Source: Escherichia phage vB_EcoM_CRJP21. Taken from it: 64,000 nucleotides of DNA. Numbering within the stretch: the stretch's first letter is position 1; every line of letters begins with the position of its first letter. Where the stretch lies: the sequence record OQ708376.1. One strand, 5' to 3'. Positions 32,119-64,000 of this stretch are shown here, piece by piece. Below the pieces are notes generated by a model. It was given only the letters and a program-made list of their open reading frames with translations. It made no database searches and was not told where the DNA came from. A program made the translations under genes and the position numbers.

Positions 32119-32454
<336 letters not shown>

Positions 32455-32455
32455 A

Positions 32456-32638
32456 ATGACACACGAAGAATGGATGTCCAAACAGCATAAAGAACATGAC
32501 TGCTTTGGGAATGGCATTCGTCAGGTACATTATGATATATTAAGAGATGAAAATCTTTTCAGGTCATATGTTTTGGATACCAGAAAACCCTGGTTTATAT
32601 GCGAACTGGCATTTAGAAAGTCAAATAATCAAAACTAA
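32456..32638 (+). CDS. MTHEEW mini-protein family, copy 3 (60 aa)
   Basis: MTHEEWMSKQHKEHDCFGNGIRQVHYDILRDENLFRSYVLDTRKPWFICELAFRK; track 32438 start trimmed to the conserved ATG. Confidence 0.5.
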   Translation: MTHEEWMSKQHKEHDCFGNGIRQVHYDILRDENLFRSYVLDTRKPWFICELAFRKSNNQN

Positions 32639-32654
32639 ACAAGGAATACAAAAA

Positions 32655-32873
32655 ATGGAAACAACTTTATTAGAAGTTATTCAATCATTAAAACCTGAAG
32701 ATGAGGTTCAAGTACTACTACATGGTTATCGTGTAAAAGGTACTGTGGTTTTAGTCAATGATACAACATTGGTTATTACAGAAACAAACCCATATGATAG
32801 TAATCAACTTGCCAATATCCATATCGATATCACTGGAATTATTGGTGTCGGTGTATCTAAAACACTTGCATAA
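32655..32873 (+). CDS. Hypothetical protein (72 aa)
   Basis: Track 32547..32873; start moved to ATG 32655 behind AAGGAA, since the upstream part overlaps copy 3. Confidence 0.45.
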   Translation: METTLLEVIQSLKPEDEVQVLLHGYRVKGTVVLVNDTTLVITETNPYDSNQLANIHIDITGIIGVGVSKTLA

Positions 32874-32893
32874 ATCATTAATTCATTATATAA

Positions 32894-33022
<129 letters not shown>

Positions 33023-33026
33023 AATA

Positions 33027-33103
33027 CGGGGTATAGCACAATTGGATAGTGCAAGAGAATTCTAATCTCTAGGTTGGGGGTTCAAGTCCCTCTACCTCGG
33101 CCA
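33027..33103 (+). tRNA. tRNA-Arg (anticodon TCT)
   Basis: Acceptor CGGGGTA / TACCTCG; D-stem GCAC/GTGC; anticodon stem-loop AGAGA-ATTCTAA-TCTCT; T-loop TTCAAGT; CCA encoded. Confidence 0.8.
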
Positions 33104-33126
33104 ATTTTAATTAAAGGTTAAAAACC

Positions 33127-33453
<327 letters not shown>

Positions 33454-33461
33454 AAAAAAAG

Positions 33462-33875
<414 letters not shown>

Positions 33876-33935
33876 CTAAATAATTCAGTACTGAGGATAT
33901 TAATATGTTTAAAGATGAACGTCCAGATTTGTAAA

Positions 33936-34066
<131 letters not shown>

Positions 34067-34069
34067 TAC

Positions 34070-34229
<160 letters not shown>

Positions 34230-34244
34230 CAATGCGAGGTATAA

Positions 34245-34502
<258 letters not shown>

Positions 34503-34510
34503 GAATTTAA

Positions 34511-34912
34511 ATGAAAAAGAATGACTTGATCAAAATGCTTCAAGAAATTGACGGCAATCCAGAGATTGTTATTTGGAATGGATACGTCGATGATTATATG
34601 AACATCGAAAAAGGCTTGACTAAAATCACTCTAGTCAAAGAAACCGAACAGTTTCTTCAGGGTGCATTAGAGCACGAATGGTGTGAACGTAACAATACAT
34701 TCGACATTCCAGAAGACCAACGAACCAAGATTGCAGAACGTGCTAAAGAACTGCATAAGAAACGCGAATACGATTTCCAGAACCCATATGTCACTGAAGA
34801 CGAATTCAATCGCTGGTACGGTAAAAAGAAATTGACAAAGTATGTCCTTTCACCTAAACTACGTGGTAAGACTTCACTTGGTGTATTCAACGCCGCAGAC
34901 TTAAACTACTAG
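34511..34912 (+). CDS. Hypothetical protein (133 aa); paralog of 34925..35140 at the N-terminus
   Basis: N-terminal MKKNDLIKMLQEIDGNPEIVIW matches MKAKDLIKILQNNPEADILIH in the next gene. Confidence 0.5.
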   Translation: MKKNDLIKMLQEIDGNPEIVIWNGYVDDYMNIEKGLTKITLVKETEQFLQGALEHEWCERNNTFDIPEDQRTKIAERAKELHKKREYDFQNPYVTEDEFNRWYGKKKLTKYVLSPKLRGKTSLGVFNAADLNY

Positions 34913-34921
34913 CGGGTATTA

Positions 34922-35471
<550 letters not shown>

Positions 35472-35531
35472 TACAACCGACAATGACGAAAGAACAGTTA
35501 TCAACATTTATCAACGCAGCATTAGATAAAA

Positions 35532-35563
<32 letters not shown>

Positions 35564-35615
35564 TACCAAGCAGCTTGAAGAACTTTGTAGTGCTGCACCT
35601 ATGCCGACTCTTGGC

Positions 35616-35716
<101 letters not shown>

Positions 35717-35728
35717 TATCTTACTTCT

Positions 35729-35818
<90 letters not shown>

Positions 35819-56336: not shown

Positions 56337-56528
56337 ATGTTGATTTATCAAAGTGATAATATTCGTGTTATGCAGCATCCCTACTTACAAATCTTTGATG
56401 TGCAGCAGTATATGGAAGGTGATGACCCAAGAACCTATGGTCGTAAGTATGATTACTTCACTGTAAAGCAGTGTAAAAATATTAACGAAGTACGACAATT
56501 AGTTCAAGAACTTCAAAACAAAGGTTGA
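56337..56528 (+). CDS. Hypothetical protein (63 aa)
   Basis: Track 56283..56528; start moved to ATG 56337 behind TAAGGATTGA. Confidence 0.45.
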   Translation: MLIYQSDNIRVMQHPYLQIFDVQQYMEGDDPRTYGRKYDYFTVKQCKNINEVRQLVQELQNKG

Positions 56529-56554
56529 CTTCGGTCAGCCTTTTTTGTTATAAT
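56523..56554 (+). terminator. UUCG-tetraloop terminator that also carries a -35 box (composite terminator-promoter module)
   Basis: GGTTGAC-TTCG-GTCAGCC then TTTTTT; embedded TTGACT followed 18 bp later by TATAAT. Confidence 0.7.
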
Positions 56555-59762: not shown

Positions 59763-59796
59763 AGGGGTTGACTAAGGTCAGCCCTTTGTTGTATCA
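59763..59796 (+). terminator. Terminator hairpin with embedded -35 (composite module)
   Basis: GGGGTTGAC-TAAG-GTCAGCCC then TTTGTTGT; embedded TTGACT followed 18 bp later by TATCAT. Confidence 0.6.
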
Positions 59797-59948: not shown

Positions 59949-59986
59949 GGTTGACTTCGGTCAGCCTTTTCTTTATACTATAAATA
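59949..59986 (+). terminator. UUCG-tetraloop terminator fused to an early promoter and a T4-type late promoter box
   Basis: GGTTGAC-TTCG-GTCAGCC then TTTTCTTT; embedded TTGACT, 17 bp spacer, TATACT; exact TATAAATA at 59979..59986. Confidence 0.65.
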
Positions 59987-60027
59987 TAGTCATAGAGAAA
60001 AAAATGAAATCTATGGAGAGAAATCAA

Positions 60028-61515
60028 ATGCCAAGTAATTTTACTGATAAAAATGGTGGTAACATGGCTGGTCACTCTGATAAATGGAGTGAACGCAACC
60101 GCCGTCCAAATAGTTATCAAGCAGGTCAAGGTTCACGTGGGTCACGTAACCAAGGAACTGGTCTAGCTGGTAAAGCAAACGCAGAAGCAGGTGAAGTTAA
60201 GAGTACTGAGAACATGACTGAGCTAGAAAAGCTACGTTATGTTAACTCATTAGGTCTTCTTAACGCAACACAAAAACAACGCCTTGCTGATATGGAACGT
60301 GCTGAGAAAGAACAAGCAGTTCCTAAAGAAGAACCAAAAGCAGAAGTACCTAAAGCTGCTAACCCTGTTAAAGAGTTATCAGATAACTTAGGTAAGATCT
60401 TTGCTAACAAACCACAGTTGATTCAGGGTATTGTCAAAGCACTACAGGCAGTTCCTAAAGAAGAACTCAAAGGTAAAGCACAAGCTGTACTTGATGTAAT
60501 GAAAGGTAATAAGAGCACTGAACCAACTGAAGTATTCAGTACTATCATGCGTGCACTTGAAGGTACACACAAAGAAGATTCCAAAGAACCTGAACAGGGT
60601 GAAGCAAGTCTTGATGGTATTCTTAAAACTTTTGATAATATTGGTAAAGCAGACCGTGCTAATGCCCAGCAAGTCAAGAATGTACTGGCTAAACTTGAAA
60701 ACCGTTTAGAAGGTAAAGACAATAAGGTTAAGCTCGTATCAGATGCAGTTAACAGTGCACTTAAATCTTATGTACAAGGTGAGAAAAGTCGCTTCGTAAC
60801 AGCTATGGATGCTGCATTCAACACTATGAAAAAGTATGAAGCAGAACATGGTGAGAAGGTAACACCAGATGGTTATCTAAAGCGTGCAGATGAAGAGGGT
60901 GCAGTTGAACAGAAAGATGTTGAGCCTGAGCAAGAAGAAATACCTGATACCGTTGATATGGATGGATACATTCATCGTCCTGAGATGGAAGAGTTTGGGT
61001 CAGATAAAGAAGGTTTTGAACATGCAATGGCAGTATATAAAGCATTAGTTAAAAATCCAGATTATGCTAACCGTTTTGTTGACGAGTTTGATAGTGCATG
61101 GAATAACTACAAAGAGAAAGGTTATGACTTCCCTGCTGAAGCTGCATTCTTTGAACTTGGTAAACTATTAGCTAAACATGGAATTGACGTTGGTTCATCT
61201 GATTCCGAAGGTATGGAAGAAGAACATCTTGAAATGACCGATAAATCAATTCATGAACTTCAAAAGCTAATGATGTGGATATCCGAGATTGGCAAAAAAG
61301 CAGGTGCTGATCGTAAAAGTATCAACAAAAACATTAGTTGGATTAAAGATAATGTTGGTAACAATGCTCGTAAACTTCAAAAGGCGTGGGCTGATTTAGT
61401 AAATGGTGCAGATGATGTTGACATTGAATCACCAGAAGCATATGAGTATGCACTAACTACACTTGATAACTCATTCAAAGAGTACGACAGTGGTGTTGGA
61501 AAGGATAAAAAATAA
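60028..61515 (+). CDS. Large charged hypothetical protein (about 495 aa) with SLGLL module; probable late gene
   Basis: Track 60004..61515; start moved to ATG 60028 behind GGAGAGAAA; Lys/Glu-rich; visibly higher GC than its neighbours; TATAAATA late box about 42 nt upstream. Confidence 0.6.
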   Translation: MPSNFTDKNGGNMAGHSDKWSERNRRPNSYQAGQGSRGSRNQGTGLAGKANAEAGEVKSTENMTELEKLRYVNSLGLLNATQKQRLADMERAEKEQAVPKEEPKAEVPKAANPVKELSDNLGKIFANKPQLIQGIVKALQAVPKEELKGKAQAVLDVMKGNKSTEPTEVFSTIMRALEGTHKEDSKEPEQGEASLDGILKTFDNIGKADRANAQQVKNVLAKLENRLEGKDNKVKLVSDAVNSALKSYVQGEKSRFVTAMDAAFNTMKKYEAEHGEKVTPDGYLKRADEEGAVEQKDVEPEQEEIPDTVDMDGYIHRPEMEEFGSDKEGFEHAMAVYKALVKNPDYANRFVDEFDSAWNNYKEKGYDFPAEAAFFELGKLLAKHGIDVGSSDSEGMEEEHLEMTDKSIHELQKLMMWISEIGKKAGADRKSINKNISWIKDNVGNNARKLQKAWADLVNGADDVDIESPEAYEYALTTLDNSFKEYDSGVGKDKK

Positions 61516-61525
61516 ACATTTAAAA

Positions 61526-61550
61526 GGTTGACTTCGGTCAACCTTTTTTT
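61526..61550 (+). terminator. UUCG-tetraloop terminator
   Basis: GGTTGAC-TTCG-GTCAACC followed by TTTTTTT. Confidence 0.75.
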
Positions 61551-61586: not shown

Positions 61587-61838
61587 ATGAAAAAATATAT
61601 TATATTTGGAATTGTATTATTTTCCAGTACTAGTTATGGTGCAGATTATCATTGCTCCGTAGCAAGACAGGATTTCAGAAATGGGGATTTCTATACCACT
61701 TCATACACAAAAGGAATAATACACGACATCGACACAACTATTGGATTTAATGCATTTGATAACAAAGATTCATATACTTCAGGTATACTATCTGAGCGTA
61801 AGACTGATGTAATGGGAATAGAAAAAGAGTTCCGGTGA
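61587..61838 (+). CDS. Small secreted protein (83 aa)
   Basis: Signal peptide MKKYIIFGIVLFSSTSYGA. Confidence 0.5.
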   Translation: MKKYIIFGIVLFSSTSYGADYHCSVARQDFRNGDFYTTSYTKGIIHDIDTTIGFNAFDNKDSYTSGILSERKTDVMGIEKEFR

Positions 61839-61848
61839 TTCAGTAGCA

Positions 61849-62172
61849 ATGTGCAATGACATTGAAAGTACTAAAACAATTTATTATAATAATGAACGTA
61901 ATTATCGTTTTCATAATTTAACCACAAATAAAAGTTTACTATTTTACAATTGTAAAGAAGTAAAACTCCCACCCGACAATAGCTGTAACCCGACGAACCC
62001 ATCACCAGCACAATGTAATACTCAATCTGAACCTGATAACAATAAAAAAGACAAAGATAAAGATAAAAAAGAAGACAAAAAACCTTTAAAAGATAAAAAG
62101 AAAGATAAAAAACCTAATCCGTTTAAAAATAATAAACCAGCACAACCCGATATGACGTGTAAAATAAAATAA
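61849..62172 (+). CDS. Cys- and Lys-rich low-complexity protein (107 aa)
   Basis: KDKDKDKKEDKKPLKDKKKDKKPNP repeat tract; several Cys residues. Confidence 0.4.
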   Translation: MCNDIESTKTIYYNNERNYRFHNLTTNKSLLFYNCKEVKLPPDNSCNPTNPSPAQCNTQSEPDNNKKDKDKDKKEDKKPLKDKKKDKKPNPFKNNKPAQPDMTCKIK

Positions 62173-62181
62173 GGATATATA

Positions 62182-62601
62182 ATGAAAAAGATTTTTTTAA
62201 GTATTATTTTAGTACTTTTTAGTTTTAATGTATATGCAGCAGATGCTAAACAGGTTGCAAATACAGTAAAAGATGTTATAGTAGATAATGCTCCTACATT
62301 AGAGGAAATTGGGGTAAAAACTTGTGATATAGTAATATATAATTTAGTTAATGATGAACGAGTTATGTTGAATACGTATGAACAAGTAGTCCCATTGGTT
62401 GAATCTGGTGATGCTTTTAGCTTTACATATAAAGTTAAATTAACAGGAGGGGTTGAAGTTAATCTTGACATTGATACCGCTTCAGTACTAAAAGATAAAC
62501 TAGGATATGTGTTCAATCGTATTCGTGAAGAAGGTCATCTTAAGTATGTTTATGAAAGTAAAATACTAAAACGTGCAATAGTTATAGAAAACTGTAAATG
62601 A
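62182..62601 (+). CDS. Secreted protein (139 aa)
   Basis: Signal peptide MKKIFLSIILVLFSFNVYAADA; RBS TAAGGATA. Confidence 0.55.
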   Translation: MKKIFLSIILVLFSFNVYAADAKQVANTVKDVIVDNAPTLEEIGVKTCDIVIYNLVNDERVMLNTYEQVVPLVESGDAFSFTYKVKLTGGVEVNLDIDTASVLKDKLGYVFNRIREEGHLKYVYESKILKRAIVIENCK

Positions 62602-62609
62602 TAATAAAA

Positions 62610-62642
62610 GGGTTGACTTCGGTCAGCCTTTTTTGTTATGAT
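62610..62642 (+). terminator. UUCG-tetraloop terminator with embedded -35 (composite module)
   Basis: GGGTTGAC-TTCG-GTCAGCC then TTTTTT; embedded TTGACT followed 18 bp later by TATGAT. Confidence 0.7.
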
Positions 62643-62670
62643 GTTGATATTAACTACAGAGGATAAAGTA

Positions 62671-63312
62671 ATGACTAAGCAAGAAATATTCAAAACTTTA
62701 ATTGACATTTTGCGTCCATCAAAAACTCGTTGTGCGATGGAGTTTGATATTCCTTATGCTGAACGCGTAATCTTTCCACAAGTTAAAGCTGCTGGACTTA
62801 CTTTGCTTGGAATGGGGATGTACTCTGTAGTAGTTGAACATAAAAACTATCCTGGACGAGCATTTAAAGTAACCACTTCACGCTGGGATGGTTTTCGTGC
62901 TTATGCAAAGTACTGCATTGAAAACGCAGGAACCAAGTTTCTTCCAGTGATCTACAGTGCCAACGAACAAGGAAACTTTGGATGGTATGAGATGGACAAG
63001 TACTATCCTATAATTAAACAAAAAAATAATTATGATGACTTTGTTAGTACTAAAATTGGAGATTTGTATTCGTATGCACATGCTGGTCAGTACGCAACTT
63101 CAGTGAATGATATGCGTGGAAATTCTGAAGAGATTGCTATTGCAACGGTCGCTGCTAACATCATGAAAGAGTTTCACGGGCGTTTTGTACCAGACATTCA
63201 TTCAAGTAATGTGATGATGGATAAAGATGGGAATGTATTCATTACTGATCCTCTTTCGTGTGATGTGCGTAGAGAAATACCAATTACTGAAGAAGATCCA
63301 GTTTTTTATTGA
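62671..63312 (+). CDS. Putative atypical protein-kinase-like protein
   Basis: AFKV (VAIK-like lysine), DIHSSNVMMD (HxDxxxxN-like catalytic loop) and FITDP (DFG-like); track start 62638 lies in the terminator U-tract, so ATG 62671 behind AGAGGATAA was used. Confidence 0.45.
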   Translation: MTKQEIFKTLIDILRPSKTRCAMEFDIPYAERVIFPQVKAAGLTLLGMGMYSVVVEHKNYPGRAFKVTTSRWDGFRAYAKYCIENAGTKFLPVIYSANEQGNFGWYEMDKYYPIIKQKNNYDDFVSTKIGDLYSYAHAGQYATSVNDMRGNSEEIAIATVAANIMKEFHGRFVPDIHSSNVMMDKDGNVFITDPLSCDVRREIPITEEDPVFY

Positions 63313-63373
63313 CAGAACTGATGTTCTGATGTATTCTTAATAAACCATAAAAATTGCGGTAAAGGATAAAATC

Positions 63374-63655
63374 ATGCGTTCATTTGAAAACTTAATAGGT
63401 AAGCATCTTTTATCTGAAATTGATGCAGACGTTAAAGAATTATCCAAATCAAAAAGTTACATTCATTTGGATGAACTGTTTGTTAAGTACGGTGAGATTG
63501 GTTTTAAGTCATTATTTGTTTTTACTATGAAAGTACATAGTTTAAAGTACTTCGATTTGAGTGCTAAAGATGGTGAACCGAATCTATATTACATGTATTA
63601 CCTTAAGAACAAAGATGAAGCTAATACATTACTCTCTGAATATATATTGGGGTAA
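63374..63655 (+). CDS. Hypothetical protein (93 aa)
   Basis: ORF with RBS AAAGGATAA. Confidence 0.5.
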   Translation: MRSFENLIGKHLLSEIDADVKELSKSKSYIHLDELFVKYGEIGFKSLFVFTMKVHSLKYFDLSAKDGEPNLYYMYYLKNKDEANTLLSEYILG

Positions 63656-63657
63656 AA

Positions 63658-63996
63658 ATGGAACAATATTTTGAATTAATAAACAAAGTATCATTTTATG
63701 TAGTATCTTTGGTTTGGGTGTATTATATGTTTTGCTATATTATTGCATTCTTCCGATACACTACTTTATATGAACGTATCTACTATGATGCCCCAATTTC
63801 ATTCTTGATGTTTTGTGCCTGTACGTGGGGAATATTAGAAGTACTGATATGTGGGTATAGTACTGATGAATTAAATCTGGTATCGGTGTTGACTGGGTTT
63901 TCATTTGTTGTTATGATAGCTGCCGTTCCAGTATGGTTGTTCTTTGGACTAGTTCATCGCATTGATATATGGCGTTCTAATATCCCTGAAAAGTAA
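63658..63996 (+). CDS. Multi-pass membrane protein (112 aa)
   Basis: Hydrophobic helices (FYVVSLVWVYYMFCYIIAFF, FLMFCACTWGILEVLICGY, VSVLTGFSFVVMIAAVPVWLFFGLV). Confidence 0.5.
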   Translation: MEQYFELINKVSFYVVSLVWVYYMFCYIIAFFRYTTLYERIYYDAPISFLMFCACTWGILEVLICGYSTDELNLVSVLTGFSFVVMIAAVPVWLFFGLVHRIDIWRSNIPEK

Positions 63997-64000
63997 GGAT

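Follow-up and report, generated by a model that had tools for sequence, protein, structure and literature searches.

Sequence comparisons and a predicted structure place an open reading frame of an Asteriusvirus jumbo coliphage in the T7 gp0.7 kinase family

The locus described here raises the question of whether a short open reading frame (ORF) with kinase-like motifs encodes a genuine protein kinase and, if so, of which family and to what end. The ORF lies in a 64,000-nt stretch of phage DNA, which we analyzed as a whole and refer to as the window. The source of the window is an Asteriusvirus jumbo coliphage of the 121Q/G17 type: positions 62000 to 64000 share 99.4% identity with Escherichia phage 121Q (an Asteriusvirus of 348.5 kb) and 98.6 to 99.2% with other relatives listed, among them slurp01, G17, SP27, Sharanji, PBECO4, and phAPEC6. 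The coordinates of the ORF, its motifs, and the features around it are collected in Table 1.

The initial annotation had called the ORF an atypical protein kinase from three motifs, AFKV, DIHSSNVMMD, and FITDP, and all three were present in the 213-aa ORF in the order claimed. The DFG-like reading of FITDP also held, with D193-P194-L195 as the DFG equivalent. The catalytic-loop motif was present as well, but its pattern is D-x-H-x-x-N (D175, H177, and N180) and not the HxDxxxxN that had been assigned to it; the residue two positions before the catalytic D175 is V173, not His. Similarly, the ORF had been placed at the end of the window, and it does lie near the end, but two further small ORFs follow it (63374-63655 and 63658-63996). 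One element was absent from the original list: a glycine-rich stretch, GMGMYS (residues 47 to 52), upstream of AFKV. When a six-frame translation of the whole window was scanned for the ordered signature GxGxx[SGA] ... [AVI]xK ... Dx[HK]xxN ... D[FPL][GVL], the kinase ORF was the sole match. Shuffling the residues of all 109 open segments of ≥100 aa 200 times produced 0 matches to the four-element signature.

Sequence searches tied the protein to one family in particular. It matched PHROG 15752 along its entire length (E=4.7e-92) and PHROG 2828, of which T7 gp0.7 is a member, with an E value of 8.1e-17. BLASTP against T7 gp0.7 itself gave an E value of 6e-9 at ~27% identity, aligning residues 41 to 196 with residues 68 to 216 of the T7 kinase (T7K). 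In a tblastn search of a phage collection, 728 records were matched, about 700 of them at <60% identity; nearly all of the latter were ~40-kb T7-like phages, mostly Autographiviridae, in which the matching gene is annotated as a Ser/Thr kinase, and the T3 kinase was among the matches (6e-8). A hidden Markov model (HMM) built from the jumbo-phage clade only scored 54 to 65 bits against the kinases of T7, T3, K74, and Vp670, with T7 at 54 bits. A large-database search returned 27 relatives with 38 to 99% identity, most of them 211 to 237 aa long, and the precomputed domain PF27024, “Phage_T7_kinase,” was assigned to all 27, including the 99%-identical P0001. The 60 to 66%-identical relatives of 213 aa are carried on contigs of 330 to 366 kb. 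Local Pfam and NCBIfam scans of the kinase protein gave no meaningful match; this result carries no information, because the same libraries likewise miss T7 gp0.7. A sequence search of the PDB gave only matches with E values of ~1 (PAK4 and GRK2) around the catalytic loop, which are too weak to use, and turned up no experimental structure of a T7K-family member. Taken at the level of sequence, the ORF is a true homologue of the kinase domain of T7 gp0.7 (UniProt P00513; PF27024; PHROG 2828; CDD PHA00451).

We then considered whether the residues needed for catalysis have been kept. Two alignments were used, one of 25 jumbo-clade sequences (A1) and one in which the four Autographiviridae kinases from T7, T3, K74, and Vp670 were added (A2). 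Nine positions were invariant in both: G47, G49, K66, D73, D175, H177, N180, D193, and P194. The background identity is 38 to 66% within the jumbo clade and about 23 to 27% to the Autographiviridae. The spacing from D175 to N180 is the canonical one, with the Mg-binding Asn five residues after the catalytic Asp. H177 occupies the place of PKA Lys168, the catalytic-loop Lys of Ser/Thr kinases. That the catalytic positions are invariant despite identities of 23 to 66% speaks against a pseudokinase and in favor of an active enzyme, and the ORF probably encodes a real, active protein kinase.

Position by position, the likeness to T7K takes in the Gly-rich loop (G49/G76), the beta3 Lys (K66/K93), the Asp just before the alphaC helix (D73/D100), the D-x-H-x-x-N loop, the proline-containing DFG substitute, and the Ser that follows it (S196/S216). 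In T7K, a G76F mutation leaves the enzyme catalytically dead (PMC13645617). The DFG substitute of T7K is DPV (residues 213 to 215), and it is followed by Ser216, an inhibitory autophosphorylation site (PMC13645617). The window kinase differs here in having DPL in place of DPV; within the jumbo clade, the L195 that replaces the T7K Val is at least 90% conserved. Ser216 has been described as conserved in all variants (PMC13645617). Its equivalent, S196 (63256-63258), is a Ser in the window phage, but most of the 24 jumbo-clade relatives have Gly or Ala instead (DPLG or DPLA); thus, inhibition by autophosphorylation at this residue may not extend across the jumbo clade.

Structure prediction had been proposed in the initial annotation as a check, with a non-kinase fold named as the outcome that would count against the call. 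The AlphaFold2 model made from the 25-sequence alignment (mean pLDDT, 93.6; pTM, 0.89) instead shows a kinase-like fold. It begins with three helices in residues 3 to 40, which are followed by beta1 to beta3 (residues 44 to 68), an alphaC helix (residues 75 to 84), beta4 and beta5, and a small hairpin, so that the N-lobe is five stranded. The part of the C-lobe that is present consists of helices at residues 127 to 139 and 152 to 168 followed by the catalytic and Mg-binding loops with their short strands. As the chain stops 20 residues past D193, it has no activation segment, APE motif, or alphaF to alphaI helices. Foldseek returned 284 PDB matches at an E value of ≤1e-3; the best 50 of the 284 were protein kinases or APH(3'), with TMq values of 0.35 to 0.45. 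Against BFVD, the top match was a 213-aa, 62%-identical jumbo-phage homologue (TM 0.91), and the next were protein kinases of Autographiviridae (E values of 1e-14 to 1e-12; TMq 0.64 to 0.76). The best agreement overall was with T7-family phage kinases, at TM values of 0.70 to 0.76. The predicted fold is the T7K version of the protein-kinase-like fold, and T7K has the same truncated C-lobe. Eukaryotic-like Ser/Thr kinases (PF00069; PknB and PKA) and aminoglycoside phosphotransferases (APH) share with the window kinase the bilobal protein-kinase-like ATP-binding core, the Gly-rich loop, the beta3 Lys, the Asp with an Asn at +5, and the Mg-binding Asp. The protein does not belong to Pkinase PF00069 (no Pfam match; no HRD, DFG, APE, or full C-lobe) or to APH PF01636 (no Pfam match; no C-terminal helical substrate-binding subdomain). 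With HRD, DFG, APE, and most of the C-lobe missing, “atypical” was a fair description. The kinase call itself, made from motifs, is borne out by the T7K homology, the kinase-like fold, and the invariant catalytic positions, and T7 gp0.7, which had been offered only as an analogy, turns out to be a homologue through its kinase domain.

Table 1. Positions of the kinase ORF, its sequence motifs, and the features immediately upstream
Feature	Position (nt)	Strand	Basis or remark
Predicted CDS of a T7K (gp0.7)-family protein kinase, kinase domain only, 213 aa plus stop (ATG at 62671; TGA at 63310-63312)	62671..63312	+	ORF list, PHROG, BLASTP, AlphaFold2 model
Glycine-rich ATP-binding loop, G47-M-G49-M-Y-S52	62809..62826	+	G47 and G49 invariant; G49 aligns with T7K G76
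AFKV, residues 64-67	62860-62871	+	
K66, predicted beta3 ATP-anchoring lysine in AFKV	62866..62868	+	Aligns with T7K K93; invariant; in model strand E63-68
Catalytic loop, D175-I-H177-S-S-N180	63193..63210	+	Invariant D, H, and N; aligns with T7K FDMHSGN
DIHSSNVMMD, residues 175-184	63193-63222	+	
FITDP, residues 190-194	63238-63252	+	
D193-P194-L195-S196, DFG-equivalent “DPV-like” motif	63247..63258	+	Alignment with T7K DPV and Ser216
Intrinsic-terminator hairpin, GGGTTGAC-TTCG-GTCAGCC plus T6	62610..62634	+	Fold of -19.1 kcal/mol, z = -5.8; ends the upstream transcription unit
Putative sigma-70-like promoter, TTGACT, 18-nt spacer, (TG)TATGAT	62613..62642	+	Consensus scan, 10/12 matches plus TG extension
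Shine-Dalgarno GAGG, 8 nt upstream of ATG 62671	62659..62662	+	Read from sequence
Three small ORFs directly upstream of the kinase gene	61587-61838, 61849-62172, 62182-62601	+	“Hypothetical” in 121Q

The gene has been annotated before, with two different start codons. It corresponds to gene 205 of 121Q, for which the GenBank product is “protein kinase” and the RefSeq product is [quoted passage not shown] The G17 counterpart, QBO61604.1, is recorded as “putative protein kinase” with a conserved-domain note to PHA00451, and the window protein is identical to it at 212 of 213 positions, the sole difference being R63 versus S63. The RefSeq and GenBank entries for 121Q give a 224-aa protein that would start at ATG 62638. 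We rejected this reading: the upstream ATG, which has no ribosome-binding site, lies within the tail of the terminator and the -10 box, and the predicted transcription start, near 62649, lies downstream of it. The 213-aa start is preferred because it has the GAGG site, because it was the choice of the G17 annotators, because of the lengths of the homologues (21 of the 27 are 211 to 213 aa long or align from the Met of ATG 62671), and because 62638 is without a ribosome-binding site. It is also the start given in the initial annotation.

The stop codon of the upstream ORF is at 62601, the terminator that follows is also annotated in the G17 record, and the -35 box of the putative promoter, TTGACT, sits in the 5' arm of the terminator hairpin. 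Promoter matches overall were no more numerous in the window than in shuffled sequences. The hairpin GGTTGAC-TTCG-GTCAGCC plus T-run, by contrast with its chance expectation of 0.00 to 0.02, occurs in five + strand copies (56523-56544, 59766-59787, 59949-59970, 61526-61547, and 62611-62632), all of them within the final 8 kb of the window. After every copy come a T-run, a TATAAT-like -10 element ~17 to 18 nt after the stem TTGAC, a ribosome-binding site, and an ATG. The same cassette stands before the kinase gene of the metagenomic phage L007 (4944-4975), and its retention there, where the kinase is only 49% identical, is an argument for a functional cassette. There is a resemblance to the composite PeSL promoter-terminator cassettes of T4-type phages (PMC2839356 and PMC4122927). 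Possession of its own hairpin/sigma-70-like cassette suggests that the kinase gene is transcribed early by host RNA polymerase. It would resemble T7 gene 0.7 in apparently being driven by a host-type promoter.

Several neighbors of the kinase gene have features of their own. Among the three small ORFs directly upstream, two have signal-peptide-like N termini, MKKYIIFGIVLFSSTSYGA and MKKIFLSIILVLFSFNVYA, and the middle one (61849-62172) has a lysine/aspartate-rich low-complexity tail, KKDKDKDKKEDKKPLKDKKKDKKP. Further upstream, a 503-aa Glu/Lys-rich ORF (60004-61515, + strand) corresponds to gene 201 of 121Q, a “virion structural protein”; its neighbors are small, probably early ORFs, and the hairpin/promoter cassettes at 59766 and 59949 lie ahead of it. 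Elsewhere in the window, ARAGORN identified seven tRNA genes on the + strand (32141-35808): Gly-tcc, Ser-tga, Arg-tct, Ser-gct, Met-cat, Asn-gtt, and Thr-tgt. For 121Q, the record lists tRNA-Leu(taa) and tRNA-Ser(act) instead of Arg-tct and Ser-gct, which reflects either a difference between the phages or a disagreement in annotation.

One departure from T7 gp0.7 is at the C terminus. The T7 protein is 359 aa long, with a kinase domain in residues 1 to 242 and a C-terminal shut-off (SO) domain in residues 243 to 359; the SO domain binds DNA and steers T7K toward nucleic-acid-binding proteins (PMC13645617). The window kinase, at 213 aa, is without this shut-off/DNA-binding domain and ends at the equivalent of about T7K residue 233 in the alignment. 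A tblastn search with T7K residues 243 to 359 found nothing in the window, in the 6 kb of 121Q DNA downstream, or in the loci of two relatives (best E=2.6). In place of the SO domain, the jumbo clade has a C-terminal tail, RREIPxTExDPxF, in which I203, P204, and E207 are at least 90% conserved; compared with T7K, this tail is specific to the jumbo clade. At the other end, the N-terminal extension is shorter, ~40 residues as opposed to ~67 in T7K. The two proteins also come from different phages, T7K from a 40-kb podovirus and the window kinase from a ~350-kb myovirus. Given that the shut-off domain is missing, kinase-independent shut-off of host transcription is not expected, and the targets of the window kinase need not favor nucleic-acid-binding proteins. 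Separately, in a metagenomic subclade (P0015 to P0027; 226 to 237 aa and 38 to 46% identical), the segment joining the two C-lobe helices is longer owing to an insertion of ~20 residues (A1 columns ~150 to 170). The insertion is basic in most members, e.g., NTRGMRKPKRDKYL, and is missing from the Asteriusvirus proteins.

The analysis established the homology, the fold, the conservation of catalytic residues, the lack of a shut-off domain, and the presence of the cassette; activity, substrates, timing of expression, and role are inferred. We are confident, if short of certain, that the protein is a catalytically competent minimal kinase of the T7K family, acting on Ser/Thr and possibly also Tyr, which likely serves early host takeover and/or the disarming of host defenses. 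In such an enzyme, Mg-ATP would be bound between the lobes by the G-loop, K66, N180, and D193, and D175 would act as the catalytic base, with the gamma-phosphate being passed to hydroxyl side chains of many host, and possibly phage, proteins. The proline-containing DFG substitute may hold the active site permanently in a “DFG-in-like” state, and the kinase would probably be constitutively active. If made early, as proposed above, it would phosphorylate host proteins in the service of takeover and/or defense disarming, by analogy with T7K and four Autographiviridae homologues; T7K phosphorylates nearly the whole host proteome and disarms several defense systems (PMC13645617).

The number of targets is the point on which a different reading has the most to offer. 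The protein could be an active T7K-family enzyme that acts as a regulatory kinase on one or a few host or phage targets. The shut-off domain that directs T7K to nucleic-acid-binding proteins is absent, the DPV valine has become a clade-conserved leucine, the conserved RREIPxTExDPxF tail could be a docking element, and the promiscuity of the jumbophage homologues was left open in the study of T7K (PMC13645617). However, the T7 protein with its shut-off domain deleted (residues 1 to 242) was built as a kinase-domain-only enzyme, indicating that the catalytic domain is self-contained (PMC13645617); the window kinase has no substrate-binding lobe (alphaF to alphaI), and the resulting open active site favors low specificity; and all four T7K homologues assayed so far, each from Autographiviridae, are hyperpromiscuous (PMC13645617). 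We regard narrow specificity as plausible but less likely than not; it is the most probable of the alternatives. A related proposal concerns the clade as a whole. The jumbo-phage proteins might form a functionally distinct branch of T7K, characterized by a free-standing minimal kinase, the DPL motif, a conserved acidic tail, targets of its own, and a jumbo-specific purpose. If this were true, the targets would differ from the nucleic-acid-binding bias of T7K, and the purpose would be something other than general anti-defense. We hold this proposal only tentatively and, on balance, doubt it.

A broader equivalence to gp0.7, as implied by the RefSeq name, would have the protein inhibit transcription, upregulate RNase III, and downregulate RNase E. 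The product name of 121Q gene 205 and that of PHROG 15752 speak for this, and part of it could transfer, since the activation of RNase III by T7K is kinase dependent (PMC4858673). The name was itself transferred by homology, however, and the shut-off activity maps to T7K residues 243 to 359 (PMC13645617), which are absent from the window kinase and are not encoded nearby. With the shut-off domain absent, the RefSeq name over-transfers transcription shut-off, and we find full equivalence improbable.

A substrate other than protein is less probable still. The enzyme could in principle phosphorylate a small molecule, an antibiotic-like compound, a nucleotide signal, or RNA, in the manner of APH or the RNA kinase Ark1, and both APH and Ark1 were among the fold matches. 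Against this, T7K, to which the homology specifically points, has been proven by experiment to be a protein kinase; the TM values to the T7-family kinases (0.70 to 0.76) are far above the TMq to APH (0.40); and there is neither a Pfam APH match nor an APH-type C-terminal helical subdomain. We consider this very improbable. Least credible of all is a pseudokinase or scaffold, i.e., a T7K relic that has degenerated and binds host proteins but catalyzes nothing: its 213 aa, its lack of HRD, DFG, and APE, and its lack of a match in local Pfam would suit such a relic, but the invariance of the G-loop, K66, D175, N180, and D193 across such divergent sequences points to selection on catalysis, and the Pfam result, which T7 gp0.7 shares, is uninformative.

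The preferred reading remains that of a minimal, catalytically competent T7K-family kinase. A search with the clade HMM, covering every open segment of ≥60 aa in the window, recovered this ORF and no paralogue. Two observations concern other possible kinases in phages of this size. The 194-aa uncharacterized protein H6X4G3 of Klebsiella phage vB_KleM_RaK2 was a weak BFVD match (E=7.5e-5; TM 0.51; 12% identity), and a second protein kinase, WNN14351.1, is mentioned for phage Sharanji (PMC11895373). Together, these suggest that additional divergent minimal kinases may be encoded by RaK2-like and 121Q-like jumbo phages.

The kinase described here is already known and brings no new kind of biology; it is annotated in public records and named in a 2026 paper. 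Bartolec et al. (Nature 2026, PMC13645617) sought T7K homologues with PHROG 2828 HMMs and listed jumbophage homologues from Escherichia phage G17 and Salmonella phage Munch, noting that in the jumbophage proteins the shut-off domain is lost and the DPV valine is missing or more weakly conserved. The copy in phage Sharanji was identified as a T7 kinase homologue, and an anti-defense role was suggested for it (PMC11895373). The window kinase is essentially the same protein as these jumbophage T7K homologues (those of G17 and Munch, 121Q gp205, and Sharanji WNN14432.1). The main text of the paper on the phAPEC6 virion proteome does not mention the kinase, and so nothing there suggests that it is packaged. 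The value of the present result is that a call made from motifs proved correct. Two annotation corrections come with it: the start codon should be placed at 62671 and not at 62638, and the shut-off, RNase III, and RNase E functions in the RefSeq product name are over-transferred. Finally, since T7K phosphorylates broadly and disarms defenses, the kinase-domain-only homologues are reasonable candidates for broad anti-defense factors, and such candidates are carried by jumbo coliphages that are themselves candidates for therapeutic use (121Q, PBECO4, G17, phAPEC6, and Sharanji).
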